Assembly: GCA_964573855.1 (NCBI GenBank)
Contig: CAZNKO010000002.1
Location: 1-44,810 of the forward strand
Length of the DNA: 44,810 bases
From: an uncultured Gammaproteobacteria bacterium
GTDB lineage: Bacteria; Patescibacteriota; Patescibacteriia; UBA9934; GWF2-40-263
Direction: 5' to 3'
The notes beneath the pieces are model-generated. The model did not search any database. It saw only the letters and a list, made by a program, of their open reading frames with translations, and was not told the DNA's origin. Below are positions 1,006 to 30,418 of the stretch, piece by piece (the first letter of the stretch is position 1; the number at the start of each line of letters is the position of its first letter). A program made the position numbers and the translations under genes.

Positions 1006-1013
1006 TTCTCCAT

Positions 1014-1048: not shown

Positions 1049-2776
1049 ATGTCCAAAACACCGAAATTTGATGCGAAAGTAAAAGCCATCCTCGACGCCA
1101 CCAAACCCGGCGAGCGCACGTGCGCGCTCACGGGAGAGAAATGGAACATGACAGATGAAGAAATTGGGTGGTACAAAAAATTCAATGTCCCGCCGTCGAA
1201 GTTCCATCCGGAAATGCGCCGGCGATTATTGTTTGGATTTCCTTCGGGGGTCGCGATTTGGCGGAAGCCGCATATGACTACGAAAGAGCCAATCTTGAGT
1301 TTCGTGCATCCAGACAGTCCGTATCAAGTCGTGACAGATAAGGAATGGGCGGTTGGGGAATATCTTCGGGAAGGTCCGGAGCTCGACGCTTCGCGCCCAT
1401 TTTTTGATCAATTCGAGTCTCTCGCACACGCCGTTCCGGTTTCCGCTTTGCGCGCGGACCCCGCGGACGTGAATACGATCGGTGTCGATACCCTAAAGAT
1501 CGAGGATTCCCAAATGGTGTTCGGGTGCGCGGAAAACAAACGATGTTTTTATCTTTATACTTCGTATCAATGTGAGGATTGCGTGGATATTGCCAACACG
1601 CGACTCACCCAGGATTGTTACGCGATCAACCGATCCAAACAGCTTCATCAATGTCAGTTCGTTTTTGAATCTGCCCAATGCCAGCAAAGCGCGTTTCTCT
1701 TTGACTGCAAAAATCTTGATTATTGTTTCGGTGCAACAAACAAGGTCAACAAGAAATACTTGTGGTTCAATGAACAGCTCACGAAAGAGGAATGGGAAAA
1801 ACGCCGCGCCACGGTGGACCTCTCATCTCGCGCGGTACTCGAGGAATATTATAAGAGATTTTACGATCTTATTGCGAAGGCTGCGTGGCCGCCTTCTTAC
1901 ATCATTGGTTCCGAAGATTGCACGGGAGAATATCTTCAGGAGTCTGTGCGGTGCCATGATTCGTACTGGGTCAATCTAGGTGTGGATTTATATTCCTGCT
2001 TCATGGCCGTGGAGTTCCAGCAGAGCGCTTTTTCCATTTGGATCGGGTGGGGAAGTGACGTGTATTATACGTGCGACCATGTCGGCGGCCCGGTAAAATT
2101 TTGTTTCCGCACGTGGGACTGCACGGACATGGAGTACTCCATGGATTGCCGCAACTGTGAACACTGTTTCGGATGCGCGGGATTAAAGCGAAAAAAGTAC
2201 TGCATTTTCAATGTCCAATACACGCCGGAGGCGTACTGGAAGAAGCTGGATGAAATAAAATGTGCGATGTTGGATCGCGGCGAGTATGGCGAATTTTTCC
2301 CAGCAAAATTTTCCCAGAGCGGTTTCCAATTCTCGATGGGAGATTTGTTTGCTGAATATACACCCGAGGAATACCGTTTGTTTGCGGCCCCGAAATTTGA
2401 TCCGAATCGTGCCGCGGTGCACGCCTCCATGCAGGATGGCGAGGCAGCACTCACCACGGATACGCTTCCGGATCGTCTCGCGGACGCTTCAGAATCTCTG
2501 GTCGGCAAGCCGATTTTTGACAAGAAACTCGGGAGAAATTACAGCATCGCGCCCCTCGAGTGGGCGTTTTACCAGCGCCACAAGCTTGCCATCCCGAGCG
2601 AGCACTTCTTGAGCCGCCTCCGGAATATCGTCCGCACCTCAAACTCACCGGTCAAAATGGCCGCCTCTTGTTCCTCTTGCGGCACAGAAATTACTACTTA
2701 CAAAAACGCAACGTTCCCAAAGCGCAACCTCATGTGCCGCCCGTGCTATCTGAAATATCTTGAAAAAAACAATTAG
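1049..2776 (+). CDS. Cys-rich repeat protein of unknown function, paralog copy 2 (575 aa), with a C-terminal CxxC..CxxC zinc ribbon
   Basis: Long ORF with an ATG start and the motif upstream. Signature blocks: FDCKNLDYCFGATNKVNKKYLWFNEQLTKEEWEKRR, MEYSMDCRNCEHCFGCAGLKRKKYCIFNVQYT, CSSCG..CRPCYLKYLE. Homologous over its full length to 3413..5146 and 5187..6923. Confidence 0.85.
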   Translation: MSKTPKFDAKVKAILDATKPGERTCALTGEKWNMTDEEIGWYKKFNVPPSKFHPEMRRRLLFGFPSGVAIWRKPHMTTKEPILSFVHPDSPYQVVTDKEWAVGEYLREGPELDASRPFFDQFESLAHAVPVSALRADPADVNTIGVDTLKIEDSQMVFGCAENKRCFYLYTSYQCEDCVDIANTRLTQDCYAINRSKQLHQCQFVFESAQCQQSAFLFDCKNLDYCFGATNKVNKKYLWFNEQLTKEEWEKRRATVDLSSRAVLEEYYKRFYDLIAKAAWPPSYIIGSEDCTGEYLQESVRCHDSYWVNLGVDLYSCFMAVEFQQSAFSIWIGWGSDVYYTCDHVGGPVKFCFRTWDCTDMEYSMDCRNCEHCFGCAGLKRKKYCIFNVQYTPEAYWKKLDEIKCAMLDRGEYGEFFPAKFSQSGFQFSMGDLFAEYTPEEYRLFAAPKFDPNRAAVHASMQDGEAALTTDTLPDRLADASESLVGKPIFDKKLGRNYSIAPLEWAFYQRHKLAIPSEHFLSRLRNIVRTSNSPVKMAASCSSCGTEITTYKNATFPKRNLMCRPCYLKYLEKNN

Positions 2777-2795: not shown

Positions 2796-3029
2796 ATGAC
2801 GTATCCGCATATTTCTCGCGACCCAGGCATATTGGGCGGAAAACCAGTGATTGCCGACACGCGTATTTCAGTGGATATGATTTTGGAGTTCCTTTCTTCA
2901 GGCATGTCTGCGAAAGATATCGTGAAGCAGTATCCTCAATTAACCGAGGAATTTATCCGTGAGGCCTTGGCGTACGCGGCTACGGATATCCGGCGTTCCG
3001 AAATTGACTCGATCCGGCTCCCGAGGTAA
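2796..3029 (+). CDS. DUF433-family antitoxin-like protein
   Basis: The sequence MTYPHISRDPGILGGKPVIADTRISVDMILEFL..G.S...I...YP.LT.E.I..AL is the typical DUF433 signature. The ATG at 2796 lies just after the stop of the upstream gene. The ORF-track start at 2760 is a TTG inside the upstream gene. Confidence 0.75.
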   Translation: MTYPHISRDPGILGGKPVIADTRISVDMILEFLSSGMSAKDIVKQYPQLTEEFIREALAYAATDIRRSEIDSIRLPR

Positions 3030-3034
3030 ATCGT

Positions 3035-3406
3035 ATGCGTTTCCTCGCGGACGAAAACGTGGCCGCGGAGGTTGTGCATGCCCTTGCCGAAGCCGGACAC
3101 GATGTGCTTCGCGTTTTTGATGTCATGCCTGGGGCAAGCGATAAAGACGTGCTTCAGCGCGCCTATCAGGAGGCGCGTATTATTTTGACGCATGATCAGG
3201 ATTTCGGAAATGTGCTTCGCTACCCCTTGCATGCCCATCGCGGCATTCTGCTCATGCGATTCAAAGATCAGTCACCCGCAAATGTCATTCGTCATTTAAA
3301 TGCATTGATCGATGAGACGTTTGAGCAGAAGATCCAAAATCGTCTCGTGATTGTCCGTGAGGATCACGTTCGATTTTATTCAGGTGAATCCAATAGTCGA
3401 TCATAA
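3035..3406 (+). CDS. DUF5615/PIN-like (Mut7-C-like) putative toxin, partner of DUF433
   Basis: MRFLADENV...THDQDFG is typical of the PIN-like proteins encoded next to DUF433 genes. It starts 5 nt after the DUF433 stop. Confidence 0.7.
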   Translation: MRFLADENVAAEVVHALAEAGHDVLRVFDVMPGASDKDVLQRAYQEARIILTHDQDFGNVLRYPLHAHRGILLMRFKDQSPANVIRHLNALIDETFEQKIQNRLVIVREDHVRFYSGESNSRS

Positions 3407-3412
3407 TTCAGT

Positions 3413-5146
3413 ATGTCCAAAACTCCGAACTACGATGCAAAAATCAAAGCCATCCTCGACGCCACGCGGCCGGGGGAGCGGACGTGCGCGCTCACCGGTC
3501 AGAAATGGGAACTTACGGCCGGGGAGCTCGAATGGTGCTGGCGATTTCTCGTTCCTCCTTCAACGATCCATCCGTTCGTCCGGATGAAAATACTTTTTGC
3601 TTATAATTCGGCCCTTTCACTCTGGCGCAAGCCGCATGCGATCACGGGCGAACCTATCCTTTCTTATATTCATCCAGACAACCAAGTAAAGGTGGTAACA
3701 GATGCAGAGTGGATGAGTCTCGATCAATCTTCTCAAGGGCGGTCGGTGGATGTGAGCCAGCCGTTTTTTGATCAGTTGTATCAGCGTTACCTTGACACCA
3801 GCTTTCGCGCGCTCGCGACCCCCGGGGATTCCGTGAATACGATCGGATTTGGAATGCACAAGTGTCTCGATAGTTTCATGATTTTTGCTTCTTTGGATAT
3901 CGAACGTTCCTCATACGTGGAGGCCTCGACCTCTGTCAGGGATTCGGTTGATGTGACGAATTCCCTTGGTGGTATCGCGGAGAGTTCCAGTATTAATCGT
4001 TGTCGTTCTCTCTATAACTGTCATGTTGCGTTTGAGTGCCATGACTGTCTCAATTCCTGGTTTTTGTTTGATTGTCGAAATTGCGAGTACTGTTTCGGCG
4101 CGACGAATCAGAGGAACAAAAAGTACCTTTGGTTCAATGAGCAACTGACGAAAGAAGAATGGGAGCGGCGGCGAGAGGCCGTCGGCCTTTCGTCCTATGC
4201 GATTTTTGAACGCGAACGCAAACGTTTTTTCGATCTGGTTGCTGGATCCGTCTGGCCGGAAACGTTTAATATCGCCGCGGGCGCATCCACTGGGGAATAT
4301 CTCGAGGAAACCGTCCGTGTCCTGGAAGGATACCAATTGCAGAAAGTTACGGACTGCTTTCGTGTGTGGTTCGCGGTCGGCAGTTCAGATTGTGCCTATC
4401 AGACCGGTTCCGGATTCGGGTCGGAAATTTGGCAGACGAGCGGGGCCGCCTATTCCCAAAACGTAAAGTTCTCACACAATCTCACCAGATGCGAAGACGT
4501 TGAATACTGTGTGGCGTGCATGAACTGCTCCCATTGTTTTGGTTGCGTGAATTTGAATCGGAAACAGTATTGCATTTTGAACAAGCAGTATACGGAACAG
4601 GATTATTGGCGGACGTTGGACGATCTTAAATGCGTCATGCTGGAGCGCGGGGAATACGGTAAATCCGTTCCCGGTAAGATGAGCATTGTTGGTATGCCGT
4701 TTTCCGCCGCCGCACTACTGCTAGGAATCTCCAAAGAGGAGATTGAATTATTTGGCGGTGAAATCTATGACGCGAAACGCGGTATGTCGTATATGCCGGC
4801 CGAAGTCGACCCTGGTCACCGGTTAACGCCCGAGGCTCTCCCGGACCGTCTTGAGGACGCGACGGGGCTTGTGAATCGGGCGGTCTGGGATCCCGCGGCT
4901 GGCCGTTCGTATCCGATCATGCCGCGCGATTTTGATTTTGCGGAGCGTCATCATCTTCCCCTCCCGCGAAAGCATTTCCTCTCCCGATTGCAAGAGCTGA
5001 ATCTTCTTTCCAATGTTCCCGAGACGATAGATAGGGCGTGTGCTTCCTGCGGCAAGGGGATCAAAGTTTACCGGAATAACACGTTTTCCACGCGCCGGGT
5101 CTTGTGTGAGGCATGTTATCTCGCGTATCTTGAATCGCGCGGTTGA
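3413..5146 (+). CDS. Cys-rich repeat protein of unknown function, paralog copy 3 (577 aa)
   Basis: Full-length homolog of 1049..2776, with an identical block NKKYLWFNEQLTKEEWERRR, VEYCVACMNCSHCFGCVNLNRKQYCILNKQYT and a C-terminal CASCG..CEACYLAYLE. It starts 6 nt after the PIN-like stop and has no copy of the upstream motif. Confidence 0.85.
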   Translation: MSKTPNYDAKIKAILDATRPGERTCALTGQKWELTAGELEWCWRFLVPPSTIHPFVRMKILFAYNSALSLWRKPHAITGEPILSYIHPDNQVKVVTDAEWMSLDQSSQGRSVDVSQPFFDQLYQRYLDTSFRALATPGDSVNTIGFGMHKCLDSFMIFASLDIERSSYVEASTSVRDSVDVTNSLGGIAESSSINRCRSLYNCHVAFECHDCLNSWFLFDCRNCEYCFGATNQRNKKYLWFNEQLTKEEWERRREAVGLSSYAIFERERKRFFDLVAGSVWPETFNIAAGASTGEYLEETVRVLEGYQLQKVTDCFRVWFAVGSSDCAYQTGSGFGSEIWQTSGAAYSQNVKFSHNLTRCEDVEYCVACMNCSHCFGCVNLNRKQYCILNKQYTEQDYWRTLDDLKCVMLERGEYGKSVPGKMSIVGMPFSAAALLLGISKEEIELFGGEIYDAKRGMSYMPAEVDPGHRLTPEALPDRLEDATGLVNRAVWDPAAGRSYPIMPRDFDFAERHHLPLPRKHFLSRLQELNLLSNVPETIDRACASCGKGIKVYRNNTFSTRRVLCEACYLAYLESRG

Positions 5147-5151
5147 TCTCC

Positions 5152-5179
5152 ATCTCTAATTCGCGCGAATGGTAGAATA
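5152..5179 (+). promoter_or_regulatory. Upstream motif copy 2 of 6 (ATCTCTAATTCGCGCGAATGGTAGAATA). Palindrome ATTCGCGCGAAT at 5159-5170; TGgTAGAAT resembles an extended -10.
   Basis: Direct sequence comparison. It ends 8 nt before the ATG at 5187. Confidence 0.6.
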
Positions 5180-5186
5180 AGAAGAT

Positions 5187-6923
5187 ATGAGCAAAACCTC
5201 GAACTACGACGCAAAAGTAAAAGCCATCCTCGACGCCACGCACCCGGGGGAGCGGGTTTGCGCGCTCACGGGAGAGAAGTGGATGATGGATGAGCGCGAA
5301 ATTGGTTGGTACAAAAAATTTAACGTCCCGCCGTCGAAGTACAGTCCCTTTACGCGCATTAAAGCAATGGCCGCGTATTTTATTTTGTTTGACATCTGGT
5401 ACAACAAACATGCGGAAACAGGAAAACCGATCATCAGCAATATCCATCCCGCGACCGGTATCCGCGTCCTTCCGGATGAAGACTGGTTTGGACGAGACTT
5501 TTCTGACCTTTCTCTTGCTTTGGATCTCCAGAAACCATTTTTTCAACAATTGTACCGTTTAAGCCGGATGGTTCCCCGCGCGGCCGGATACAATCCGGTG
5601 AAGCCGGAACGTTCCATTGCGTTCATTTCTTTCGGAGACGAAGATAGTTATTTTGTTCTCGCGTGTCGTTCCAAGCGCAGCGTCTACTGCATCAACGGGT
5701 TCGATGTTGAGGATAGCGCGGAGTTGGATGCCGTAAATTCTGCCCGACGTTCTTATAACGTTATTTATTCCGATCGTGTCTATCAATGTAAATTCATCCG
5801 AGAGTCGCGGGACGTTCAATTCTCTTCCTTCTTGTTCGATTGTCGCAATTGCGAATATTGCTTTGGCGCCACGAACCAACGCAATAAAAAATATCTCTGG
5901 TTCAACGAGCAACTCTCAAGAGAGGAATGGGAACGTCGCGTTGCTGCCGTCGACCTTGCTTCGTTTGCCGTCCGTCAGGAGTATGAAAGGAAATTCCATG
6001 AACTGGTGAGCAAGGCTATTTGGCCTGAAAATTTTAACATCAACAGTCCCGGGTGTACGGGGGAGTATTTGACGGATTGCGTGGACGTGAAGGAGAGCTA
6101 CAATGCTCGGGGGGCGAGAGACGCGGAATACATTTGCTATTCCATTGGCCCATCGCACGATCTGTATTATGCAAGCGGAAATGCGGACGCCTCCGATTGT
6201 TATTACGGGGTCGGTTTTCACTATACGAGTCAAAGCAAATTTTCCCTTTCGATTACCCAACGGTGCCTCGGGGTGGAGTATTGCGAGAGCTGTTATGATT
6301 GTTCGTATTGTTTTGGACGTGTTGGATTACAAAGGAAGTCGTTTTGCATTCTGAACAAGCAATACACGGAGGCGGAGTATTGGAAGACCGTCGATGCCTT
6401 GAAGTGTGCGATGCTCGATCGGGGGGAATATGGTGAAGCGGCGCCAGCCTATTTTTCAACGCAACATTGGCCAGGATCAGGAGCCACGACGATCTATGAG
6501 GCAACGGAAGAGGACGCGCGAAGATTGCGTGCGGCGCAATTTCAGGCGTCGGACGACGACGCGGAAGGTCCACCAGTAGACCAAACAAAAATTCGCAACG
6601 TGGAAAGCATGCCAGACCGTGTGGCAAATGAGAGCATTGACAGTCTTGTTAGGGTTCCGTTTTTGGACCCAAAGATGGGTCGGCGGTTTTCGTATCTTAA
6701 ACCAGAGCTTGAGCTGTATCAGAAATTGGGGGTTGCCCCGCTGAGGCGGCATCCGACGGGATGCATCCATGATCTCTATCGCGAAATGAATCGGCCGATT
6801 TTTCACGAAACGACATGCGCGAAGTGCGGGAAGGGGATTCGGGTCGCGGATAATCAGGCGTATCCGAAGCGAATCATCTATTGTCAGCTCTGCTATTTGA
6901 GGTATCTTGAAGAGCGTGGATGA
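5187..6923 (+). CDS. Cys-rich repeat protein of unknown function, paralog copy 4 (578 aa)
   Basis: Full-length homolog of copies 2 and 3 (FDCRNCEYCFGATNQRNKKYLWFNEQLSREEWERR, VEYCESCYDCSYCFGRVGLQRKSFCILNKQYT, CAKCG..CQLCYLRYLE). Confidence 0.85.
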   Translation: MSKTSNYDAKVKAILDATHPGERVCALTGEKWMMDEREIGWYKKFNVPPSKYSPFTRIKAMAAYFILFDIWYNKHAETGKPIISNIHPATGIRVLPDEDWFGRDFSDLSLALDLQKPFFQQLYRLSRMVPRAAGYNPVKPERSIAFISFGDEDSYFVLACRSKRSVYCINGFDVEDSAELDAVNSARRSYNVIYSDRVYQCKFIRESRDVQFSSFLFDCRNCEYCFGATNQRNKKYLWFNEQLSREEWERRVAAVDLASFAVRQEYERKFHELVSKAIWPENFNINSPGCTGEYLTDCVDVKESYNARGARDAEYICYSIGPSHDLYYASGNADASDCYYGVGFHYTSQSKFSLSITQRCLGVEYCESCYDCSYCFGRVGLQRKSFCILNKQYTEAEYWKTVDALKCAMLDRGEYGEAAPAYFSTQHWPGSGATTIYEATEEDARRLRAAQFQASDDDAEGPPVDQTKIRNVESMPDRVANESIDSLVRVPFLDPKMGRRFSYLKPELELYQKLGVAPLRRHPTGCIHDLYREMNRPIFHETTCAKCGKGIRVADNQAYPKRIIYCQLCYLRYLEERG

Positions 6924-10063: not shown

Positions 10064-11335
10064 ATGCCAAAAGCCAAAAGCCAGAAGCCAAAAGCTAGCC
10101 CTGAGCGAAGTCAAAGGGTTCTTGTCGGCATGTCCGGCGGCGTGGATTCGTCCGTGTCCGCGGCATTGTTGTTGGAGGTTGGGTATGAGGTGATTGGCGC
10201 GTTCATGAAAAATTGGTCCGGACAGAAATGTGCGGATGGGTCGTTTAAAGAATGTGGGTGGCGCGACGAGCGGCGGGATGCCATGCGCGTGGCATCCACA
10301 CTCGGGATTCCGTTTGTGACGCTCGATTTTGAGGAACAGTATCGGCGCGATGTGGTTGAGAACATGTTCCGTGAGTTTGAAGCGGGCCGCACGCCGAATC
10401 CGGACGTGATGTGCAACAAGTTCATCAAATTTGATCGATTCGTGAAGGCGGCAGATGGGCTTGGATGTCAATTTGTCGCGACAGGACATTATGCCCGCAT
10501 ATTCCCCGAGCCTGTCGAGGGGCCTTCGACAAGCTCAGGCAATAATTTTCGTATCCTCATGGGCTCTGACCCAAACAAAGACCAAACCTATTTCCTCTGG
10601 GCCATGCCGCCCGCCGTTTTGTCGCGCGTGTTGTTTCCGGTTGGCGGCATGATAAAGGCGGATGTGCGAAAGAAAGCGCGTGAGCTTGAGCTTTCCACTG
10701 CTGACAAAAAAGACAGCACCGGCATTTGTTTTGTTGGGGAAGTGGACAGGCGTGAATTTTTGCAGGGGGGCATTCCGGAAGATCCAGGCGGGATTGTGAC
10801 GACCGAGGGAGAGATTGTCGGCCAGCATTCTGGGGTCGCGTTTTATACGATCGGCCAGCGCCACGGGCTCAACGTCGGTGGCGGCACGCCCTATTATGTT
10901 GTGGAGAAAAAACCAGCGACAAAACAGTTGGTCGTCTCAAGCAATTTTCATCCAGCCCTGTTCAAAAAAGAGTTAACGGCGATCCAATGCAACTGGTTCC
11001 GCGATCTTTCGCGTCCCCCTTTTCAAGGGGGACTACAGGGGGTTACCGGTGCATCGGCAACCCCTCCTCACCTCCCCTTGGAAAGGGGAGGAAGTACATT
11101 CCGCTGTCAGGCGCGGATTCGTTATCGCCAGCCTGTTGCGCCATGTACCGTGACCATTCTCCCCCTTTTTCCGCCAGAGGCGGATCCCGCTCTGCGGGAC
11201 AAGGGGGAGCCAGAGGGGGTTGCCGGTGATCGTGTCCACGTCCATTTTGACGGCCCCCAGCGCGCCGTCACCCCCGGCCAGTCCATTGTGTTTTATCAAG
11301 ACGACGAAATGCTGGGCGGGGGTGTGATAGAATGA
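10064..11335 (+). CDS. mnmA: tRNA-specific 2-thiouridylase MnmA, carrying three in-frame repeat insertions
   Basis: PP-loop motif VGMSGGVDSS, a central DQTYFL block and a C-terminal AVTPGQSIVFYQDDEMLGGGVIE. Confidence 0.9.
   Translation: MPKAKSQKPKASPERSQRVLVGMSGGVDSSVSAALLLEVGYEVIGAFMKNWSGQKCADGSFKECGWRDERRDAMRVASTLGIPFVTLDFEEQYRRDVVENMFREFEAGRTPNPDVMCNKFIKFDRFVKAADGLGCQFVATGHYARIFPEPVEGPSTSSGNNFRILMGSDPNKDQTYFLWAMPPAVLSRVLFPVGGMIKADVRKKARELELSTADKKDSTGICFVGEVDRREFLQGGIPEDPGGIVTTEGEIVGQHSGVAFYTIGQRHGLNVGGGTPYYVVEKKPATKQLVVSSNFHPALFKKELTAIQCNWFRDLSRPPFQGGLQGVTGASATPPHLPLERGGSTFRCQARIRYRQPVAPCTVTILPLFPPEADPALRDKGEPEGVAGDRVHVHFDGPQRAVTPGQSIVFYQDDEMLGGGVIE
10066..10100 (+). repeat. Heptanucleotide tandem array (GCCAAAA-like) x5 at the 5' end of mnmA
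   Basis: gccaaaa gccaaaa gccagaa gccaaaa gctagcc, encoding the N-terminal tail PKAKSQKPKAS. Confidence 0.75.
10522..10540 (+). repeat. Short type-A element (GCCTTCGACAAGCTCAGGC), in-frame in mnmA (PSTSSG)
   Basis: Matches the copies at 7129 and 7378 except at the terminal bases. Confidence 0.75.
11014..11091 (+). repeat. Palindromic repeat element (type C) in-frame in mnmA (..PPFQGGLQGVTGASATPPHLPLERGG..)
   Basis: Three consecutive hairpins: TCCCCCTT ttc AAGGGGGA; GGGGTTaCCG gtgcat CGGcAACCCC; CCTCCCCTT gga AAGGGGAGG. It shares the AGGGGGTTNCCG module with 11157 and 24946. Confidence 0.7.
11157..11226 (+). repeat. Palindromic repeat element (type B) in-frame in mnmA (ILPLFPPEADPALRDKGEPEGVAG)
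   Basis: TTCTCCCCCTTTTTCCGCCAGAGGCGGA..CTCTG..CAAGGGGGAG..AGAGGGGGTTGCCGG. An intergenic copy lies at 24946..25014. Confidence 0.75.
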
Positions 11336-23100: not shown

Positions 23101-23826
23101 ATGGAAAATATTCTCCTCCCATCCTCGATCCGTTTTGAACCCGGGACCCGCCCGAACGAGGGCCTGATGGTCATTGAGCCTTGTTTCCACGGGTACGGTA
23201 CCACGCTTGGAAACGCCATTCGGCGCGTGCTGTTGTCGTCCCTTCCGGGCGCCGCGGTCACGGCCGTCAAGATCAAGGGGGTGACGCACGATTTTCAGGC
23301 CATGGACAACGTAAAAGAAGACGTCTTGGAAATCATTTTGAATTTGAAGACTCTCCGGCTTAAAGTGTTCAGCGAGGAGCCGGTGAAGCTCACGCTCAAA
23401 GTGACAGGGGAGAAGACCGTGAAAGCCGGGGACATTGAGCCGAATGCGGAAGTGGAGATTGTGAATCCGGAACTCAAGATCGCGACCCTGACGGACCCGA
23501 AGGCAACGCTCGAGATGGAACTCACGGTCGCCCGCGGTCGCGGATACAAGCCGACCGAGGAGCGTCTCAAGGAAAACAATGAACTCGGCGTCATCGCGAT
23601 CGATTCTTTGTACTCGCCGGTTCGAAACGTGGGCTACCGTGTCGAAAACACGCGCGTCGGGGAGATCACGAACTACGATAAACTCCTCATGACGATTGAA
23701 ACCGATGGCACCATCACACCTGAGGAGGCGGTAAAAGAGGCTGCGAAGGTTTTGATTGACCACTTCTCGCTTTTTCTGCAGCCGTCCGCCCCCGCAGAAG
23801 TGCCGGCCGAAGCTGCGGCAGAATAA
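23101..23826 (+). CDS. rpoA: DNA-directed RNA polymerase alpha subunit, N-terminal domain only (241 aa)
   Basis: GYG.TLGNA.RRVLLSS.PGAAVT.VKI.GV.H.F, RGRGY and VENTRVG...YDKL. The ORF ends after a short Ala/Pro/Glu tail. Confidence 0.9.
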   Translation: MENILLPSSIRFEPGTRPNEGLMVIEPCFHGYGTTLGNAIRRVLLSSLPGAAVTAVKIKGVTHDFQAMDNVKEDVLEIILNLKTLRLKVFSEEPVKLTLKVTGEKTVKAGDIEPNAEVEIVNPELKIATLTDPKATLEMELTVARGRGYKPTEERLKENNELGVIAIDSLYSPVRNVGYRVENTRVGEITNYDKLLMTIETDGTITPEEAVKEAAKVLIDHFSLFLQPSAPAEVPAEAAAE

Positions 23827-24945: not shown

Positions 24946-25014
24946 TTCTCCCCCTTTTTCCGCCAGAGGCGGACCAGCCTCTGGCTGGCAAGGGGGAGTT
25001 AGAGGGGGTTACCG
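24946..25014. repeat. Intergenic copy of the type-B palindromic element
   Basis: TTCTCCCCCTTTTTCCGCCAGAGGCGGACCAGCCTCTGGCTGGCAAGGGGGAGTTAGAGGGGGTTACCG. Compare 11157..11226 inside mnmA. Confidence 0.75.
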
Positions 25015-25140: not shown

Positions 25141-25222
25141 GTTAGGGTTTAATTAATCGACGGTCTGTTATATGATTGTGGAATCTCGTAAAGATTTTAG
25201 GTACCATTTGGCGGGAGAAGAT

Positions 25223-25978
25223 ATGAAAAAGTTGAAATATACTAAGGATTTTTTAAACAGGATTATTTGCGGTAATGCCGTAGATGTGATGAAACAGATA
25301 CCGAACGGATCTGTCGATTTGGTAATTACTTCGCCACCTTACAATCTGAAAAATTCCACCGGCAATGGTATGAAAGATGGCCGTGGCGGAAAATGGGCAA
25401 ATGCCGCTCTGCAAAATGGCTATACGCACCATAGTGATTGCATGCCGCACGATGAATATGTGAGCTGGCAGAGGGATTGCCTCAATGAAATGATGCGTGT
25501 TATTCCGGAAGATGGCGCGATTTTTTACAACCACAAATGGCGGGTGCAAGGTGGTTTATTGCAAGACCGGCAAGATATTGTGAATGAATTTCCCGTTCGT
25601 CAGATTATTATTTGGAGACGGAAAGGCGGCCTTAACTTCAATCCAGGGTATTTCTTACCCACTTATGAAGTGATTTATCTTATCGCCAAGCCGAAATTTA
25701 AATTAACATCGAAAGCCAACGCATACGGCGATATTTGGGATTTTACACAAGAGATGAATAATGAACATCCAGCTGCCTTTCCGGTAGACTTGATTGACAG
25801 AATCGTCTCGGCTACAGACGCTAAAATCATTTTGGACCCATTTATGGGCTCCGGTACAACGGCAATTTCTGCGATAAATTTCAAGCGAGATTATATCGGG
25901 ATTGATATTTCGCCTGAGTACTGCGAAATGGCTCGGAAAAGGATCAAACAACATCAATCTCAATCTAAACTTTGGTAG
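25223..25978 (+). CDS. Type II DNA methyltransferase, beta-class amino-methyltransferase (SPPY motif; N4-cytosine type likely)
   Basis: Motif IV DLVITSPPYN precedes motif I ILDPFMGSGTT, which is the beta-class order. ATG 25223 is preceded by GGGAGAAG. Confidence 0.85.
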   Translation: MKKLKYTKDFLNRIICGNAVDVMKQIPNGSVDLVITSPPYNLKNSTGNGMKDGRGGKWANAALQNGYTHHSDCMPHDEYVSWQRDCLNEMMRVIPEDGAIFYNHKWRVQGGLLQDRQDIVNEFPVRQIIIWRRKGGLNFNPGYFLPTYEVIYLIAKPKFKLTSKANAYGDIWDFTQEMNNEHPAAFPVDLIDRIVSATDAKIILDPFMGSGTTAISAINFKRDYIGIDISPEYCEMARKRIKQHQSQSKLW

Positions 25979-25982
25979 TCTT

Positions 25983-26780
25983 GTGGAAAAAAAACCTGTT
26001 ATTTATACAAAACCGGAGCTCATCGCGAAACTCAAAGAGATTTCGATGATGGGATTTGTACCGAATGCGCGTCGTGGAAACGCGGGAGGTATCGGCAACA
26101 CGCTTGAGGACCTTCTTGGTATCGAGGAAAATAATTTGCCGATACCGAACGCCGCGGAATGGGAACTAAAAACACAACGAATCAACACAATGTCTCTCAC
26201 AACGCTTTTTCACATGGAGCCATCCCCGCGCGCCGTTGGGTTTGTGCCGCAAGTATTTTTACCCAAATATAGTTGGTCACACGAGGAAGCTGGGCACAGA
26301 TACCCAAAGAGTGAGATGAGCTTTCGGCAGACGATCCATGGCCGATCACGGAGTGATCGCGGTTTTATGGTTGTGATTGACCGTAAGGCGCAGAAGATTT
26401 TGGTTTCATTTGATGCAGGAAGTGTTGATATTCGACATAAGGCATGGCTTGAATCCGTCAAAAAGCGTGTGGGACTTGGCGAACTTAACCCGCAACCCTA
26501 TTGGGGTTTTGATGATTTGGAACATAAAGCTGGAACAAAACTTCTCAATACTTTCTATGTTCAAGCTGATGTGAAAGTTGAACGGAGAAAAGAATCCTAT
26601 CATTACAAAAAAGTAATGATGTTGCAAAAATTCAGCTTTGATGTATTTTTGAAAGCGTTGGAGGAGGGAAAAATTTTGGTGGACTTCGATGCTCGCACCG
26701 GACACAACCACGGCACAAAATTCCGCATGCGGCAGGATTGTTTGCCGATGTTGTATGAAAAAGCAACCAGTGTCATATAA
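25983..26780 (+). CDS. Type II restriction endonuclease, MvaI/BcnI family
   Basis: Colinear with my recollection of BcnI: ..ELIAKLKEI..GFV, LEDLLGIEENN..IPNAAEWELKTQR...SLTTLFH, and C-terminal ILVDFDARTG.NHGTKFRMR...LP.LY. The GTG at 25983 is 5 nt after the methyltransferase stop. Confidence 0.7.
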   Translation: MEKKPVIYTKPELIAKLKEISMMGFVPNARRGNAGGIGNTLEDLLGIEENNLPIPNAAEWELKTQRINTMSLTTLFHMEPSPRAVGFVPQVFLPKYSWSHEEAGHRYPKSEMSFRQTIHGRSRSDRGFMVVIDRKAQKILVSFDAGSVDIRHKAWLESVKKRVGLGELNPQPYWGFDDLEHKAGTKLLNTFYVQADVKVERRKESYHYKKVMMLQKFSFDVFLKALEEGKILVDFDARTGHNHGTKFRMRQDCLPMLYEKATSVI

Positions 26781-26806
26781 AAGTCAGATAAATAATTTAT
26801 ATCCAT

Positions 26807-26841
26807 GTCAAAAAATGCCTTAAAATAAGGCATTTTTTGAC
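26807..26841. terminator. Bidirectional intrinsic terminator
   Basis: GTCAAAAAATGCCTT aaaat AAGGCATTTTTTGAC: a perfect 15-bp stem with A/T tracts on both sides. Confidence 0.8.
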
Positions 26842-26966
26842 TCTTAACTTTTTAACGAGTTTGTTTATTCTATAACTACCTCGACAGTAAATGGCCTCTT
26901 GCATTGTATTTTTAGGTGAAAAACGTTATGATATTTAATAAAGTAATAAATTAAGCATTAAATCGT

Positions 26967-27320
26967 ATGGACAAAAACGCCGAAATAATACTCAAAATTG
27001 AGGTCCTACTTGGACACCTTAAACAATCATTGGGGACAAAGACTTCTTCTGAAAAGAAGCATGGAGCGAAAGGATTGGATGGGATAAGCCGGATAAATTT
27101 TTTAGGCTTAACCAAGGAGATTTTTGATTTAGTTCAGGAGGGCTACTTCAAAGAACCGAGAACCATTTCAGAAATTAAAAAAAAATTGCATCAAAGAGCA
27201 GTGAATAAGCCCACAACATCTCTAATGAGACCCTTGCGTCTGCTCATACGCAAAAGAATTATTGAGCGCGAGAAACCCGACGGAAAAGGTCATTACAAAT
27301 ATTTTCAAGTAAATCAATAA
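26967..27320 (+). CDS. Small putative winged-helix protein, paralog 1 of 3 (117 aa)
   Basis: The C-terminal half (F.LVQEGYF.EPRTISEIKKKL....VNKPTTSLMRPLRLLIRKRIIEREKPDGKGHYKYFQV) aligns with 27322..27672 and 27685..27939. Confidence 0.55.
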   Translation: MDKNAEIILKIEVLLGHLKQSLGTKTSSEKKHGAKGLDGISRINFLGLTKEIFDLVQEGYFKEPRTISEIKKKLHQRAVNKPTTSLMRPLRLLIRKRIIEREKPDGKGHYKYFQVNQ

Positions 27321-27321
27321 T

Positions 27322-27672
27322 ATGAAAAAAGACCCACAAAAAATCGCCGCACAAATTATGGAACTTGTATCAGAACTTGTCACACTCGTGGGTGTACCCA
27401 TAGTTCATAGGTCAGCAAAGCCGCACAAATCACCTGCGAGTGAGAAAAGAGATATGTCCGGCGCCACTGGAGGTATTCGTTGGTTGGTTGAGGAAGGAAA
27501 GCTGGATTCACCAGAACAGTTATCCGAAATTATGGAATTTTTGCGGCAAGAAGGCAGACACTATTCTCGACCAACCATCTCGATGGGGTTATTGAACTTG
27601 GTGCGCGAAAGGGTTTTGACGCGATTCCACGACAAAGGAGATAAAAATTGGAAATACGTTATTCGAAAATAG
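27322..27672 (+). CDS. Small putative winged-helix protein, paralog 2 of 3 (116 aa)
   Basis: IRWLVEEGKLDSPEQLSEIMEFLRQEGRHYSRPTISMGLLNLVRERVLTRFHDKGDKNWKYVIRK. It starts 1 nt after the paralog 1 stop. Confidence 0.55.
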   Translation: MKKDPQKIAAQIMELVSELVTLVGVPIVHRSAKPHKSPASEKRDMSGATGGIRWLVEEGKLDSPEQLSEIMEFLRQEGRHYSRPTISMGLLNLVRERVLTRFHDKGDKNWKYVIRK

Positions 27673-27684
27673 TTATAACGAATT

Positions 27685-27939
27685 ATGTCGGCAAAAAGTC
27701 TGAAAGACAAGGCAAGCCAGCTCTCGCTTCAAGGCGGCAGTAAACACGAATTGATACAAAAGCTCATTGTCAACGGATTTTTTGACACACCCAAAATGAC
27801 AGGTGAGCTTATTTTGGAGGTTTGTCAAACTTTCGGAAAGAGGTTGCGATCAAATGAGATACAAACTTACATGAAAAAGTTCATGGAGGCGGCCATTATA
27901 CGGGCTGTTCACGATAAGCAGAGCAGGGGTAATTTTTGA
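27685..27939 (+). CDS. Small putative winged-helix protein, paralog 3 of 3. It ends at a TGA that is in-frame with the next ORF.
   Basis: LIQKLIVNGFFDTPKMTGELILEVCQTFGKRLRSNEIQTYMKKFMEAAIIRAVHDKQSRGNF*. The stop falls where paralogs 1 and 2 have Y/W. Confidence 0.5.
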   Translation: MSAKSLKDKASQLSLQGGSKHELIQKLIVNGFFDTPKMTGELILEVCQTFGKRLRSNEIQTYMKKFMEAAIIRAVHDKQSRGNF

Positions 27940-27951
27940 ATACTAGCCAGT

Positions 27952-28428
27952 ATGGATAAATCGAAAGCGGCACAGCTTATTGGCAAAAGCAAGAAAGTTC
28001 AAGAAATAGAGCACGACCTTTTTTCAGATGGCCTGCTCAAAAAATTTGGAAAGGACTTTGGTGTTGAGTTTACTGATTTACAATACAATTTCGATAGAAG
28101 CGGAACGTGTACGGCATTTCTTCTGCGGAAGATTCTGGAGAAGCTGATTTATCTTGCTTTTGCCAAGCACGGTGTTGGATCAAAATTAGAGGATAAGACA
28201 CGGGCTGGTCGTCTAGTTGGTCTCGAATCCATGATGAGCATTGCCGTTTCGGAAAAGATTAGCGGTGTGCCATTTTTGACCTCCAAAACGGCAAAAGAAA
28301 TTCAAGGCATTAAATTTTTAGGAGACGCGGCTGCACATAATCCACTAACCAACGTAGAGATGAGGACTATCATACCGCAAATGCCTTTCATTATTACCGC
28401 ATTTGAAGAAGTGGCAAAGAAGATGTAA
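27952..28428 (+). CDS. DUF4145-like protein (158 aa). It may be the C-terminal part of a fusion with 27685..27939.
   Basis: IQGIKFLGDAAAHNP resembles the R/K-x2-G-N/D-x-A-A-H signature of DUF4145. It shares a reading frame with the upstream ORF, separated by TGA plus four sense codons. Confidence 0.45.
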   Translation: MDKSKAAQLIGKSKKVQEIEHDLFSDGLLKKFGKDFGVEFTDLQYNFDRSGTCTAFLLRKILEKLIYLAFAKHGVGSKLEDKTRAGRLVGLESMMSIAVSEKISGVPFLTSKTAKEIQGIKFLGDAAAHNPLTNVEMRTIIPQMPFIITAFEEVAKKM

Positions 28429-28440
28429 TTTATAAAGGTA

Positions 28441-28468
28441 TTCTCTAATTCGCGCGAATGGTAGAATA
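28441..28468 (+). promoter_or_regulatory. Upstream motif copy 3 of 6 (TTCTCTAATTCGCGCGAATGGTAGAATA)
   Basis: Matches 5153..5179 over 27 nt (TCTCTAATTCGCGCGAATGGTAGAATA). Palindrome at 28448-28459. It ends 20 nt before the ATG at 28489. Confidence 0.6.
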
Positions 28469-28488
28469 GTTACGGATGCGCATTTATT

Positions 28489-28836
28489 ATGGCTACAAAA
28501 CGAAAGAAAGGAATGTCTAAATATTTATTGACCTATCTTTGCCAGAAATGCGGTATGGATTTTGGGGTGTCGGATATACACACACCGAAATGTTTTTACT
28601 GCGGTTCCAAACGAGGACACGAACTTGTGAAAAAACAAAAGATCACTCCACAGGTTTTGGCGGAACGGATGAAATTAGTGACTGACCGGATGATCGAAAA
28701 TCTTAAAAAGGCTTATAACGTAAGGCCTGCCGATACCGATGAGGATGAATTGCTCGAAGTTTTGGTAAAGGCGGATAAACTGCGCAGAGGCGTGAGGCGT
28801 CTTCCATTCAAACGTGGAAAACATTTGGCATCGTAA
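28489..28836 (+). CDS. Small zinc-ribbon protein (115 aa)
   Basis: CQKCG..(13 aa)..CFYCG four-Cys ribbon near the N-terminus, followed by a helical, charged C-terminal half. Confidence 0.55.
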   Translation: MATKRKKGMSKYLLTYLCQKCGMDFGVSDIHTPKCFYCGSKRGHELVKKQKITPQVLAERMKLVTDRMIENLKKAYNVRPADTDEDELLEVLVKADKLRRGVRRLPFKRGKHLAS

Positions 28837-28842
28837 GGCATA

Positions 28843-28870
28843 TTCTCTAATTCGCGCGAATGGTGGAATA
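28843..28870 (+). promoter_or_regulatory. Upstream motif copy 4 of 6 (TTCTCTAATTCGCGCGAATGGTGGAATA)
   Basis: Palindrome at 28850-28861. It ends 30 nt before the ATG at 28901. Confidence 0.6.
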
Positions 28871-28900
28871 GTTGGCCGGGTTGTAGTAGTCTTGAAGGAT

Positions 28901-29170
28901 ATGAAAGAGAAGGAAATGGAGCGGGTCCTCAAGGCCCTGGCCAATCGACGGCGTCTCGCCATTGTGAGATATTTGAAACGCACCAGAGAGGCGACGGTGG
29001 GGGATATCGCGGACGAGATTAGGCTTTCGTTCAAAGCGACGTCGAAACATCTCGGCGTCCTTTATGCCGCAGATATCGTGGATCGGGAACAGCGAAGCTT
29101 GCAGATGTGGTATCGTCTCGTCCCCAATCTTCATCCCGTTGCAAAACATATCTCTAATTCGCTCGAATAG
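28901..29170 (+). CDS. ArsR/SmtB-family winged-helix transcriptional regulator (89 aa, no Cys)
   Basis: LKALANRRRLAIVRYLKRTREATVGDIADEIRLSFKATSKHLGVLYAADIVDREQRSLQMWYRL is the canonical ArsR HTH_5 pattern. ATG 28901 is preceded by GAAGGA. The ORF-track start at 28814 overlaps the upstream gene and the motif. Confidence 0.8.
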   Translation: MKEKEMERVLKALANRRRLAIVRYLKRTREATVGDIADEIRLSFKATSKHLGVLYAADIVDREQRSLQMWYRLVPNLHPVAKHISNSLE

Positions 29171-29177
29171 GCGAATA
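29149..29177 (+). promoter_or_regulatory. Upstream motif copy 5 of 6 (TATCTCTAATTCGCTCGAATAGGCGAATA). It overlaps the last codons of the ArsR-family gene.
   Basis: The palindrome has one mismatch (ATTCGCTCGAAT). It ends 13 nt before the ATG at 29191. Confidence 0.55.
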
Positions 29178-29190
29178 GTTCGAGTGTCCT

Positions 29191-29583
29191 ATGTCCTTCC
29201 GTGGTGTCATCATTGAAGAAAGTTTGAAAAATAATAACATTCTTCAAGACGTAAAAATTTTGAAGACCAAGATTGAAAAGGTAACGGATGAGCACAAGAC
29301 TCCATGGCTGAAACAATGGACCTTGCATTCTGTGGAGATATCAGATGAGAGGGTAGACGAAGTGGCGAAAGAATTAAGCGGAGTTATCAATGATCAACCG
29401 AGCTCTTGGTATGCTGACTTTAAGAACGAAAATTTCCGCTACATCATTTACCCTGGTAAAATTTTTAAAATACATCGCGCGAATAACCAAGAATACCTTG
29501 CTGCGACCGAGTACGGTATTTCTCTTGGCATCCCGTCGTATCAGGTCGATTTCGTCCCTTATATTAAACAATGGGAACGATAG
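29191..29583 (+). CDS. Hypothetical protein (130 aa)
   Basis: ATG-initiated ORF preceded by the motif. No family was recognised. Confidence 0.5.
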   Translation: MSFRGVIIEESLKNNNILQDVKILKTKIEKVTDEHKTPWLKQWTLHSVEISDERVDEVAKELSGVINDQPSSWYADFKNENFRYIIYPGKIFKIHRANNQEYLAATEYGISLGIPSYQVDFVPYIKQWER

Positions 29584-29614
29584 CCATTGATTTTTGTATC
29601 CACACTCTTCTACC

Positions 29615-29642
29615 TTCTCTAATTCGCTCGAATAGGCGAATA
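29615..29642 (+). promoter_or_regulatory. Upstream motif copy 6 of 6 (TTCTCTAATTCGCTCGAATAGGCGAATA)
   Basis: Matches copy 5 over its last 27 nt (TCTCTAATTCGCTCGAATAGGCGAATA). It ends only 2 nt before the ATG at 29645. Confidence 0.55.
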
Positions 29643-29644
29643 GT

Positions 29645-30418
29645 ATGTCCGAGTATTACACGCCGCAGAGGACGAAGAATTTGTATGATCCCCGTCGACA
29701 TGGCTCGGGGCAGGCGGCCACGGAGCCGTTTAAGGTGTCGCGGTCGAAGATTGATCTCTTTCTCGAATGCCCGCGGTGTTTTTATTTTGACCGCCGGCTC
29801 GGGGTCGGGCGGCCGCCCGGGTTTCCGTTTGCGTTGAACTCGGCAGTGGACCATCTTTTGAAGCTCGAATTCGACATCCATCGGGCGAACGGCACTCAGC
29901 ATCCATTGATCAAAAAGTACGGCGTGGATGCGCGTCCGGTACCGCACAAAGATCTGAACAAATGGCGCGAAAATTTTACAGGTGTTCAGTATCTCCACAA
30001 GCCGACAAATTTTTTGGTGACAGGCGCGATTGATGACCTGTGGCAGAATTCGAAAAAGGAATATATCGTCGTGGATTACAAGGCGACGGCCAAGGATGAG
30101 GAGATCACGGAGTTGAATAAGGATTGGCATGAAGGATACAAACGGCAGATGGAGGTGTATCAGTGGCTCCTGCGCCAGAATGGCTACAAGGTATCGGACA
30201 TGGGGTATTTCGTGTACTGCAACGGGAAGACGGACCGCAAGGCGTTCGACGGCAAGCTTGAATTCGACGTGACGCTCATTGCATACGCGGGCGATGATGC
30301 GTGGGTGGATAAGACGCTCGAGAAGGCGCACAAGTGTTTGAATGGCGATAAGATTCCGAAAGCGGGTAAGGATTGCGACTACTGCAGTTACGTCGAGACG
30401 CGAGACAAATACGTATAG
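29645..30418 (+). CDS. PD-(D/E)XK nuclease, Cas4/RecB-like, with putative Fe-S cysteines
   Basis: N-terminal SRSKIDLFLECPRCFYF, then IDDL...EYIVVDYKA (D..D/E-x-K), QMEVYQWLL (QxxxY) and C-terminal C..(13 aa)..CDYC. Confidence 0.7.
   Translation: MSEYYTPQRTKNLYDPRRHGSGQAATEPFKVSRSKIDLFLECPRCFYFDRRLGVGRPPGFPFALNSAVDHLLKLEFDIHRANGTQHPLIKKYGVDARPVPHKDLNKWRENFTGVQYLHKPTNFLVTGAIDDLWQNSKKEYIVVDYKATAKDEEITELNKDWHEGYKRQMEVYQWLLRQNGYKVSDMGYFVYCNGKTDRKAFDGKLEFDVTLIAYAGDDAWVDKTLEKAHKCLNGDKIPKAGKDCDYCSYVETRDKYV

Follow-up and report, generated by a model that had tools for sequence, protein, structure and literature searches.

We describe here a stretch of 44,810 nucleotides (nt) from an uncultured bacterium of the candidate phyla radiation (CPR; contig CAZNKO010000002.1, assembly GCA_964573855.1), hereafter called the window, in which a near-palindrome of ~30 base pairs (bp), TATTCTCTAATTCGCGCGAATggTAGAATAg, stands just ahead of six genes. 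One of these genes encodes an 89-amino-acid (aa) winged-helix regulator of the ArsR/SmtB family. Comparison across genomes suggests that the two form the core of a probable self-regulating system, in which an ArsR-type factor would act through ~30-bp operators that are conserved across Parcubacteria-type CPR bacteria while the set of target genes shifts from one genome to the next. Among candidate binders of the motif the ArsR-family protein stands far ahead, and the pairing of the two is very likely, because gene and palindrome co-occur locally at 74 of 80 loci chosen on the gene alone and because the other six loci carry variant forms of the palindrome. For the role predicted for them, we refer to the palindromes as operators throughout.

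Exactly six copies of the element are present in the window, all on the forward strand. A scan for TCTCTAATTCGCKCGAATRGNNGAATAGT returned matches starting at 28442, 28844, 29151, and 29616 with no mismatch and at 1014 and 5153 with two mismatches, against a chance expectation of 0 (100 shuffles). Scored with a position weight matrix (PWM) derived from other genomes, the six copies reach 45 to 50 bits, the rest of the window does not exceed 8 bits, and shuffled sequence scores below 0. A repeat finder describes the element as an imperfect palindrome of ~30 bp, TATTCTCTAATTCGCGCGAATggTAGAATA, composed of four ATTC/GAAT quarter-sites at 8-bp intervals. The motif that a first-pass annotation of this DNA had picked out is therefore real, but its extent had been drawn too short. 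Six sites in 45 kb make the window a dense cluster of sites. Where CPR DNA was sampled without regard to the motif, there are ~5 to 8 sites per Mb, so that just a handful are to be expected in a genome.

All six copies end 0 to 28 nt 5' of an ATG. Four are clustered between 28439 and 29643, where they precede a zinc-ribbon gene, the ArsR gene, a 130-aa gene, and a PD-(D/E)XK nuclease gene in turn. The row of four genes, each with its own motif copy, that the first-pass annotation reported is thus present as described; of the spacings it gave (402, 306, and 466), the first is right and the other two are off by one, the measured start-to-start distances being 402, 307, and 465 nt. Within this run, copy 3 (TATTCTCTAATTCGCGCGAATGGTAGAATAG; 28439 to 28469; PWM score, 49.9 bits) lies 18 nt before the ATG at 28489, as counted from the end of the 29-mer at the site. 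Copy 4 (28841 to 28871; 48.2 bits) lies 28 nt before the ATG of the ArsR gene at 28901 and is its predicted autoregulatory site. Copy 5 (29148 to 29178; 45.5 bits) covers the last six ArsR codons and the stop (ATC TCT AAT TCG CTC GAA TAG, read as ISNSLE*), an overlap that had been noticed correctly in the first pass, and leaves 11 nt to the ATG of the 130-aa gene at 29191. Copy 6 (29613 to 29643; 46.3 bits) ends immediately 5' of the nuclease ATG at 29645, a distance of 0 nt. The two remaining copies stand before large Cys-rich paralogs. Copy 1 (CATTCTCTAATTCGCGCGAATAGGAGAATAA; 1011 to 1041; 49.6 bits) is directly 3' of the stop codon in a frameshifted upstream paralog, with 6 nt left to the ATG at 1049, and copy 2 (5150 to 5180; 46.4 bits) is 5 nt 5' of the ATG at 5187.

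The first-pass annotation had put the ArsR protein forward as the candidate cognate factor of the motif and had proposed a check of their co-occurrence across genomes. We ran this check in both directions, and both link the two. In the forward direction, the 18-mer TCTCTAATTCGCKCGAAT was scanned against 185,579 species genomes, and at least 119 loci matched, almost all of them in metagenome-assembled genomes (MAGs) of Patescibacteria. The lineages among the matches listed include Zambryski-, Sung-, Giovannoni-, Lipton-, Nomura-, Kaiser-, Harrison-, Doudna-, and Kerfeldbacteria and "Paceibacterota." A strong ArsR orthologue (E < 1e-20) adjoins the motif in 36 of the matches listed (loci of at most 8 kb each), and for several further 18-mer loci the orthologue is found elsewhere in the same assembly, on a different locus. 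In the reverse direction, an orthologue alignment yielded 279 relatives; the 80 best loci among these were kept, and the motif played no part in choosing them. The palindrome core lies no more than 150 nt upstream of the ArsR gene at 69 of these 80 loci, at its 3' end at 66, in both places at 61, and in either at the 74 noted above, always pointing the same way as the gene. The upstream site corresponds to copy 4 of the window, so that a palindrome ahead of the ArsR gene itself, as first reported from this window, recurs widely; the 3'-end site corresponds to copy 5.

The six loci left over are informative in their own right. They bear variant palindromes, with a central TA instead of GC, for example, or with altered outer arms. 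A divergent ArsR gene at locus L070 has ggcTAATTCGTACGAATTAgcc on both of its sides, and loci L155 and L173 each have a variant palindrome of their own (ctcctagaaccATTCGCGCGAATggttctaggag and TATTCTACTATTCGAGCGAATAGTAGAATA, respectively). That divergent copies of the gene carry divergent palindromes on both sides indicates that protein and site change together. The 10-bp core of the site, ATTCG-N2-CGAAT, is invariant across the aligned sites, perfect 30-bp palindromes are present in many genomes, and the two arms co-vary, as a symmetric binder would predict. The spacing of the two sites that flank the ArsR gene ranges from 276 to 407 nt, and in the closest relative (L282) the order is 130-aa gene, site, ArsR gene, site, exonuclease gene. 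No other conserved neighbour gene that might supply an alternative binder, a partner, or a sensor was found beside the ArsR gene or the sites across the loci. LexA was rejected as the binder because no LexA gene lies near the sites: among 199 motif- or ArsR-anchored loci there is a single LexA-like open reading frame (ORF), and it is not adjacent to a site.

By sequence, the 89-aa protein (28901 to 29170, forward strand; the start codon agrees with the public gene call) belongs to the ArsR/SmtB family at curated thresholds. It matches the NCBIfam model NF033788, "metalloregulator ArsR/SmtB family," at 65.7 bits (cutoff, 55) and the Pfam models HTH_5 (5e-9; 36.3 bits against a cutoff of 22) and HTH_20 (34.6 bits against a cutoff of 27). 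Nearly all of its 30 relatives in the PDB are of the ArsR/SmtB type or close to it, among them HlyU, CzrA, SmtB, CadC, NolR, and BigR, and the nearest solved structure is that of HlyU (3jth; E, 3e-14). Public records name it just an "ArsR family" or "winged helix-turn-helix" regulator. In an alignment of 27 ArsR sequences the invariant residues (E7, K11, N15, R17, R18, V33, I40, T47, S48, K49, H50, L51, L54, Q64, and Y71) are confined to α1 and the recognition helix, the latter reading K-A/S-T-S-K-H-L without exception among the orthologues. The window protein has no Cys at all, and no conserved Cys, His/Asp cluster, or metal-ligand position was found in the 27-sequence alignment, which bears out the earlier remark that this is probably not a thiolate metal sensor. 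The protein accordingly falls outside the metal- and thiol-sensing subset of the family (SmtB, CzrA, CadC, ArsR, and BigR), as it has no conserved α3 or α3N Cys, no α5 Asp/His/Glu ligands, and no redox Cys pair.

The closest known counterparts appear to be HlyU-like members of the family that have no metal sites, and as a kind of system an autoregulated repressor with a palindromic operator would be an ordinary one. HlyU of Vibrio is likewise a winged-helix ArsR/SmtB-type protein of ~90 to 100 aa without metal sites, and it acts as a dimer on a 17-bp imperfect palindrome, a mode of binding that is predicted for the protein described here. It binds TAATTCAGACTAAATTA, a 17-bp palindrome which can be lengthened by 7 bp on each side (PMC4330345). 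The TAATTC half-site is identical in the two systems, and in total size the footprint resembles the 30-bp element. Several features set them apart, however. HlyU activates from ~170 bp upstream and has no strict consensus, whereas the site here is near-invariant and lies on the core promoter; the half-sites are spaced by N5 in HlyU and by N4 here; the Cys redox switch proposed for Vibrio cholerae HlyU has no counterpart in the present family, which has no conserved Cys; and HlyU genes lack flanking sites of their own.

Comparison with the better-known regulators yields a similar mixture of likeness and difference. The SmtB, CzrA, and ArsR repressors are autoregulated and bind 12-2-12-type inverted repeats that overlap the promoter; autorepression is habitual in the ArsR/SmtB family. 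The protein described here is of the same family and scores above the NF033788 cutoff, but at 86 to 89 aa its orthologues are at the minimal end of the family, the conserved α3N Cys and the α5 Asp/His/Glu ligands are missing, and no metal-efflux or metallothionein genes are among the predicted targets. With HrcA and its CIRCE element, the NrdR boxes, and the LexA boxes, the system shares a near-invariant promoter palindrome that is kept across wide taxonomic distances together with an autoregulated repressor, a role that is predicted here. The protein family differs from all of these, and the targets are incoherent as a pathway and depend on the genome. A LexA/SOS box in particular does not fit, there being no LexA gene linked to the sites, and the LexA motif of Patescibacteria is cited as a direct repeat.

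How such a factor would work is suggested by where the sites lie with respect to promoter elements. The consensus of the site is asymmetric, with a left arm TCTCTA and a right arm aGgaGAATAg, and every site is oriented toward the gene downstream of it. An extended −10 element, TGGTAGAAT, makes up the right arm at 43 of 319 oriented sites, at 27 of 86 ArsR-upstream sites, and at only 5 of 76 3'-end sites. Several ArsR genes elsewhere have their ATG only 6 to 9 nt past the −10 in the right arm, which implies leaderless or near-leaderless mRNA. At other loci, separate downstream TGnTATAAT elements or −10 hexamers peak at motif positions 39 to 44 and 49, that is ~20 nt further on, so that the palindrome would cover the −35 region. 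Within the window, copies 2 and 3 (at 5150 and 28439) contain a perfect TGGTAGAAT and copy 4 (at 28841) contains TGGTGGAAT; the other three contain no usable hexamer, and a generic sigma-70 scan of the window called no promoters at the sites.

We propose that the 89-aa protein would act as a sequence-specific DNA-binding dimer, possibly with two dimers per site, and that it would recognise the palindrome TATTCTCTAATTCGCGCGAATTAGAGAATA through the invariant core and the outer ATTC/GAAT quarter-sites. One predicted site stands before the ArsR gene and another over its stop codon, so that the protein would control both its own synthesis and the following gene, and through the four further sites in the window it would likewise control the zinc-ribbon gene, the PD-(D/E)XK nuclease gene, and two of the Cys-rich 575-aa paralogs. 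The palindrome would occupy the core promoter, the right arm itself serving as the extended −10 in two of the six window copies and in about one-third of ArsR-upstream sites elsewhere. Protein bound over −33 to −3 should occlude the promoter and block RNA polymerase, which makes repression of the targets and autorepression of the ArsR gene the likely mode. The repressor role assigned in the first pass is accordingly graded likelier than activation, because many sites overlap a −10 element. Autoregulation would follow from the operator at the gene's own promoter in 69 of the 80 orthologue loci. In Parcubacteria-type CPR lineages the pair is conserved, and sites number roughly 5 to 10 per Mb. 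We infer physical binding, the direction of regulation, and the stoichiometry from sequence.

A number of observations weigh against this proposal. All of the evidence for the pairing of protein and palindrome is comparative. The fixed orientation and the asymmetric consensus are not needed by a purely symmetric operator; we attribute the asymmetry, provisionally, to overlap with promoter elements. Copies 5 and 6 (29148 and 29613), in which the right arm reads TAGGCGAAT, leave no convincing −10 before their ATGs, which follow after only 11 and 0 nt; these two copies may be secondary operators or roadblocks within a transcript running from the ArsR gene through the 130-aa gene to the nuclease gene, and not promoters. 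A site centred near −41 would suit a class II activator as well, and HlyU, the nearest structural relative, is described as an activator. Finally, the two sites that flank the ArsR gene do not show a helical phasing of 10 to 11 bp (Rayleigh p > 0.18), so that cooperative looping between them is unsupported.

The alternative that survives best takes the motif to be a promoter element for RNA polymerase or a dedicated sigma factor, with the ArsR gene being merely one of its users and not the source of its binder. Fixed orientation, the very short and fixed distance to start codons, the extended −10 inside the right arm at 43 of the 319 sites, and the presence of housekeeping genes downstream (ArgRS, L21, L25, Mur ligases, TsaD, and TsaE) are all what such an element would lead one to expect. 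We nevertheless judge it unlikely. The invariant ATTCG-N2-CGAAT is a perfect dyad, unlike a −35 or a −10, and full 30-bp perfect palindromes are common. A usable −10 is found at only about one-third of sites, and where the −10 is a separate element, at least two classes of distance to it occur. At its frequency in unselected CPR DNA the motif is far too rare to be a general promoter, variant motifs accompany variant ArsR genes, and a local linkage of 93% to one small gene is unexpected for a sigma-type promoter.

A second alternative, to which we give very little credence, holds that the palindromes are recombination or mobility sites, akin to integron attC sites, repetitive extragenic palindromes (REPs), or miniature inverted-repeat transposable elements, that bound single-gene cassettes and carry the ArsR gene as a passenger. 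This revives the resemblance to cassette arrays drawn in the first-pass annotation. The layout of one repeat per gene, the low-GC restriction–modification island directly upstream of the four-gene run, the absence of conserved neighbours around the ArsR gene across genomes, and the splitting of the palindrome at its centre by a GC-rich insert of 17 to 45 nt at about a dozen loci are in its favour, and as in integron attC arrays an imperfect palindrome stands at each boundary in a run of small co-directional genes. The earlier note had called for a search of the flanks for recombination sites or an integrase, and no integrase, transposase, or REP-associated tyrosine transposase (RAYT) was found among the ORFs scanned across the 44.8-kb window. 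The sites are 30 bp long, promoter-proximal, and 5' of start codons, where they overlap promoter elements; they are aligned with the direction of transcription; and the same site occurs singly before chromosomal housekeeping genes in other genomes. They are conserved almost base for base across class-level lineages. Integron attC sites are conserved in structure only, and REPs are species-specific. An integron cassette array is therefore rejected for this window, and an origin of the motif in phages is rejected as well, with just 2 matches in 2.9 million viral contigs.

A third alternative is an RNA or single-strand hairpin between genes (an attenuator, a processing site, or a terminator), which we regard as highly improbable: a stem of 12 to 14 bp could form, arm co-variation at the outer positions exceeds the shuffled expectation, and the sites lie between co-directional genes that lack intrinsic terminators, but the palindrome is not followed by a U-tract, most sites lack complementarity at positions 0/13 and −1/14, the −3/16 pair is Watson–Crick in just 46%, Rfam offers no match, transcription would begin downstream of the palindrome wherever the right arm is the −10, and a dimeric protein predicts arm co-variation equally, so that co-variation does not separate the two.

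The genes that the ArsR-type factor would control are a separate question. The first-pass annotation had envisaged one small repressor governing a dispersed set of Cys-, Zn-, and Fe-S-rich proteins that included the 575-aa paralogs. The theme fits the window loosely (four of the six targets) but is unsupported as a rule. Among 293 unique proteins downstream of sites, 85 are ArsR proteins and 16 come from a distant branch of the Cys-rich family that has an N-terminal CQNC and shares ~24% identity with the paralogs of the window; the remainder are a mixed group. The motif is upstream of the closest relatives of the 575-aa paralogs at 0 of 76 loci, which answers the suggested test of co-occurrence in the negative for these relatives, and upstream of relatives of the 130-aa gene at 0 of 69 other loci. 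We therefore reject a conserved link of the motif with either the Cys-rich subfamily of the window or the 130-aa family. On comparative evidence, the conserved predicted target is the ArsR gene alone, plus whichever gene follows it.

The heterogeneous remainder spans several functions. DNA-repair and related genes downstream of sites include those for the MPG and Fpg glycosylases, MGMT, DinB, UvrC, PIF1, DnaQ-like exonucleases, PD-(D/E)XK and GIY-YIG nucleases, NUDIX proteins, and TfoX. Cell-wall genes are represented by FemAB and the Mur ligases; translation-related genes by TsaD and TsaE (t6A enzymes), Sua5, ArgRS, L21, and L25; and others by TspO, DUF167, and transporters. DNA repair looks enriched among the targets, ~2-fold by a rough estimate made without a proper background. 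One could go further and suppose that the sensor-less ArsR protein and its 30-bp operator form a lineage-rewired, SOS-like damage or stress regulon of Parcubacteria-type CPR bacteria with ~5 to 10 sites per genome. The recurrent repair targets (MPG, Fpg, MGMT, DinB, UvrC, PD-(D/E)XK, GIY-YIG, DnaQ-like, and MutT-like NUDIX proteins) are the basis for this idea, which we retain as a tentative hypothesis and consider improbable. On this idea the regulon would also take in the large CPR-specific Cys-rich proteins of unknown fold.

Of the predicted targets in the window, the Cys-rich proteins are the largest. Paralog 1 (1049 to 2776, forward strand; 575 aa, 26 Cys) has 814 homologues, all "hypothetical" and the closest of them in Ca. 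Uhrbacteria, and the 578-aa paralog (5187 to 6923, forward strand) belongs with it in an alignment of the paralogs at 40 to 45% identity. No Pfam or NCBIfam model matches the family, and its AlphaFold2 model (mean predicted local distance difference test [pLDDT] score, 82) has no fold match in the PDB. Paralog 2 (3413 to 5146) is the sole complete paralog without an operator, so that two of the three complete ones have it. Members of the ~575-aa family have 23 to 26 Cys and are widespread in CPR bacteria, where a genome holds several paralogs, frequently arranged in tandem. A fourth paralog runs off the contig start (window positions 1 to 1009); its body is in frame 3 to ~854 and its conserved C terminus (…CRPCYLQYLETHN*) in frame 1, a frameshift that points to a pseudogene or an assembly error. 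Between paralogs 1 and 2 (2796 to 3406), a DUF5615/PIN_10 protein (3035 to 3406) and a preceding small ORF look like a toxin–antitoxin module.

Three further predicted targets share the four-gene run with the ArsR gene, all of them on the forward strand. The 115-aa zinc-ribbon-like protein (28489 to 28836), with a CxxC…CxxC pattern, has sub-threshold matches only, no Pfam or NCBIfam family, and no homologue in the other motif loci. The 130-aa protein (29191 to 29583) contains no Cys and is a predicted target in this genome only. It has no family match and no Pfam model, and its AlphaFold2 model (pLDDT, 87) has no PDB match at E ≤ 0.001; its family numbers ~1,900 members at 55 to 70% identity, in CPR bacteria and in DPANN archaea (Woese-, Pace-, Nano-, Aenigm-, and Micrarchaeota). 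The 257-aa nuclease (29645 to 30418) has N- and C-terminal Cys clusters and matches PF12705 (PDDEXK_1) at 4e-15 (56.7 bits; cutoff, 22). The description of this protein as a Cas4-like Fe-S nuclease holds in part: by sequence it is of the Cas4-like fold class and a member of the PD-(D/E)XK superfamily, but it barely exceeds the Pfam Cas_Cas4 cutoff and scores 33.6 bits against the TIGR00372 cutoff of 65, and the window yielded neither cas genes nor a CRISPR array, so that we reject it as a Cas4 equivalog. Homologues of the nuclease adjoin the ArsR gene at four other loci (L161, L079, L116, and L192).

No description of the ArsR–palindrome pair was found in the searchable literature on the motif, on ArsR proteins of CPR bacteria or Patescibacteria, or on Parcubacteria promoters. 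What appears to be new is this pair itself, its near-invariance across many candidate phyla, the position of an operator across the stop codon of its own regulator, and the change of targets from genome to genome; a new kind of mechanism is not revealed by it. The CPR bacteria are largely uncultured, and judging by the literature searched, very little seems to be known of their transcriptional regulation. A candidate pair of protein and DNA site, defined at single-base level, kept across many candidate phyla, and testable with one 89-aa protein and one 30-bp oligonucleotide, would provide an anchor for promoter prediction in CPR genomes, including their apparent leaderless starts. It would give a first regulatory context to large protein families, namely the 575-aa Cys-rich family and, in this genome, the 130-aa family held in common with DPANN archaea. 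It would also show clearly that a regulator may be conserved while nearly all of its targets are exchanged from one genome to the next.

The window is otherwise an ordinary chromosomal stretch of a CPR bacterium, nearest to Ca. Uhrbacteria when judged on the Cys-rich proteins, with genes for MnmA, Era, MurJ, and AlaRS and a ribosomal block in the order S11–S4–RpoA–L17–L13–S9. The block is followed by a low-GC restriction–modification island, the four motif-bearing genes, and polysaccharide-synthesis genes. The island (25172 to 28428) has a GC content of 41%, against 50 to 57% elsewhere, and encodes an N4/N6 DNA methylase and a restriction endonuclease of the MvaI/BcnI family; after these come four small ORFs (117, 116, 84, and 158 aa) that have no Pfam or NCBIfam match. 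It is directly 5' of the four operator-bearing genes. Scans of the window for tRNAs and Rfam families gave no matches. A repeated intergenic element, TTCTCCCCCTTTTTCCGCCAGAGGCGGA…GGGGGAG..AGAGGGGGTTACCG, is found at 11027 to 11228 and at 24946 to 25014 and is possibly a terminator or a REP-like repeat; similar "ctctcccccagggagaggag" hairpins lie 5' of Cys-rich genes at loci L205 and L210. Within the ribosomal block, RpoA (23101 to 23826) is only 241 aa long, with the L17 gene starting 4 nt past its stop; Pfam detects its N-terminal domain and its dimerisation domain but not an alpha C-terminal domain. An RNA polymerase without that domain would be limited in its use of UP elements and in class I activation.

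Three further observations concern the operator and its genomes. About a dozen genomes have a hairpin-forming insert that divides the operator precisely at the midpoint (L146:2889, L174:3254, L181:1545 and 2291, L165:4230, L126:462, L171:481, L053:2509, L116, and L185). The inserts often contain GCCTGCC or GGCAGG, and at the junction CGAAT is changed to GGGAAT or ATTCG to ATTCC; such an insert might represent a small insertion element with the palindrome as its target, or the split operator could be a long-spacer variant of the site. Several MAGs that carry the CPR-specific regulator, the operator, or the Cys-rich family bear the labels "Gammaproteobacteria," "Bdellovibrionales," "Nanoarchaeota," or "Saccharibacteria" (L013, L062, L181, L200, and others), and these labels look unreliable, or the contigs mis-binned. 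Lastly, at L282 (1469 to 1499) an operator-like site lies within the reading frame of phosphoglycerate kinase, where it is read as …ISHSLIRANGG… and forms an apparent loop insertion after the conserved SHxGRP motif.

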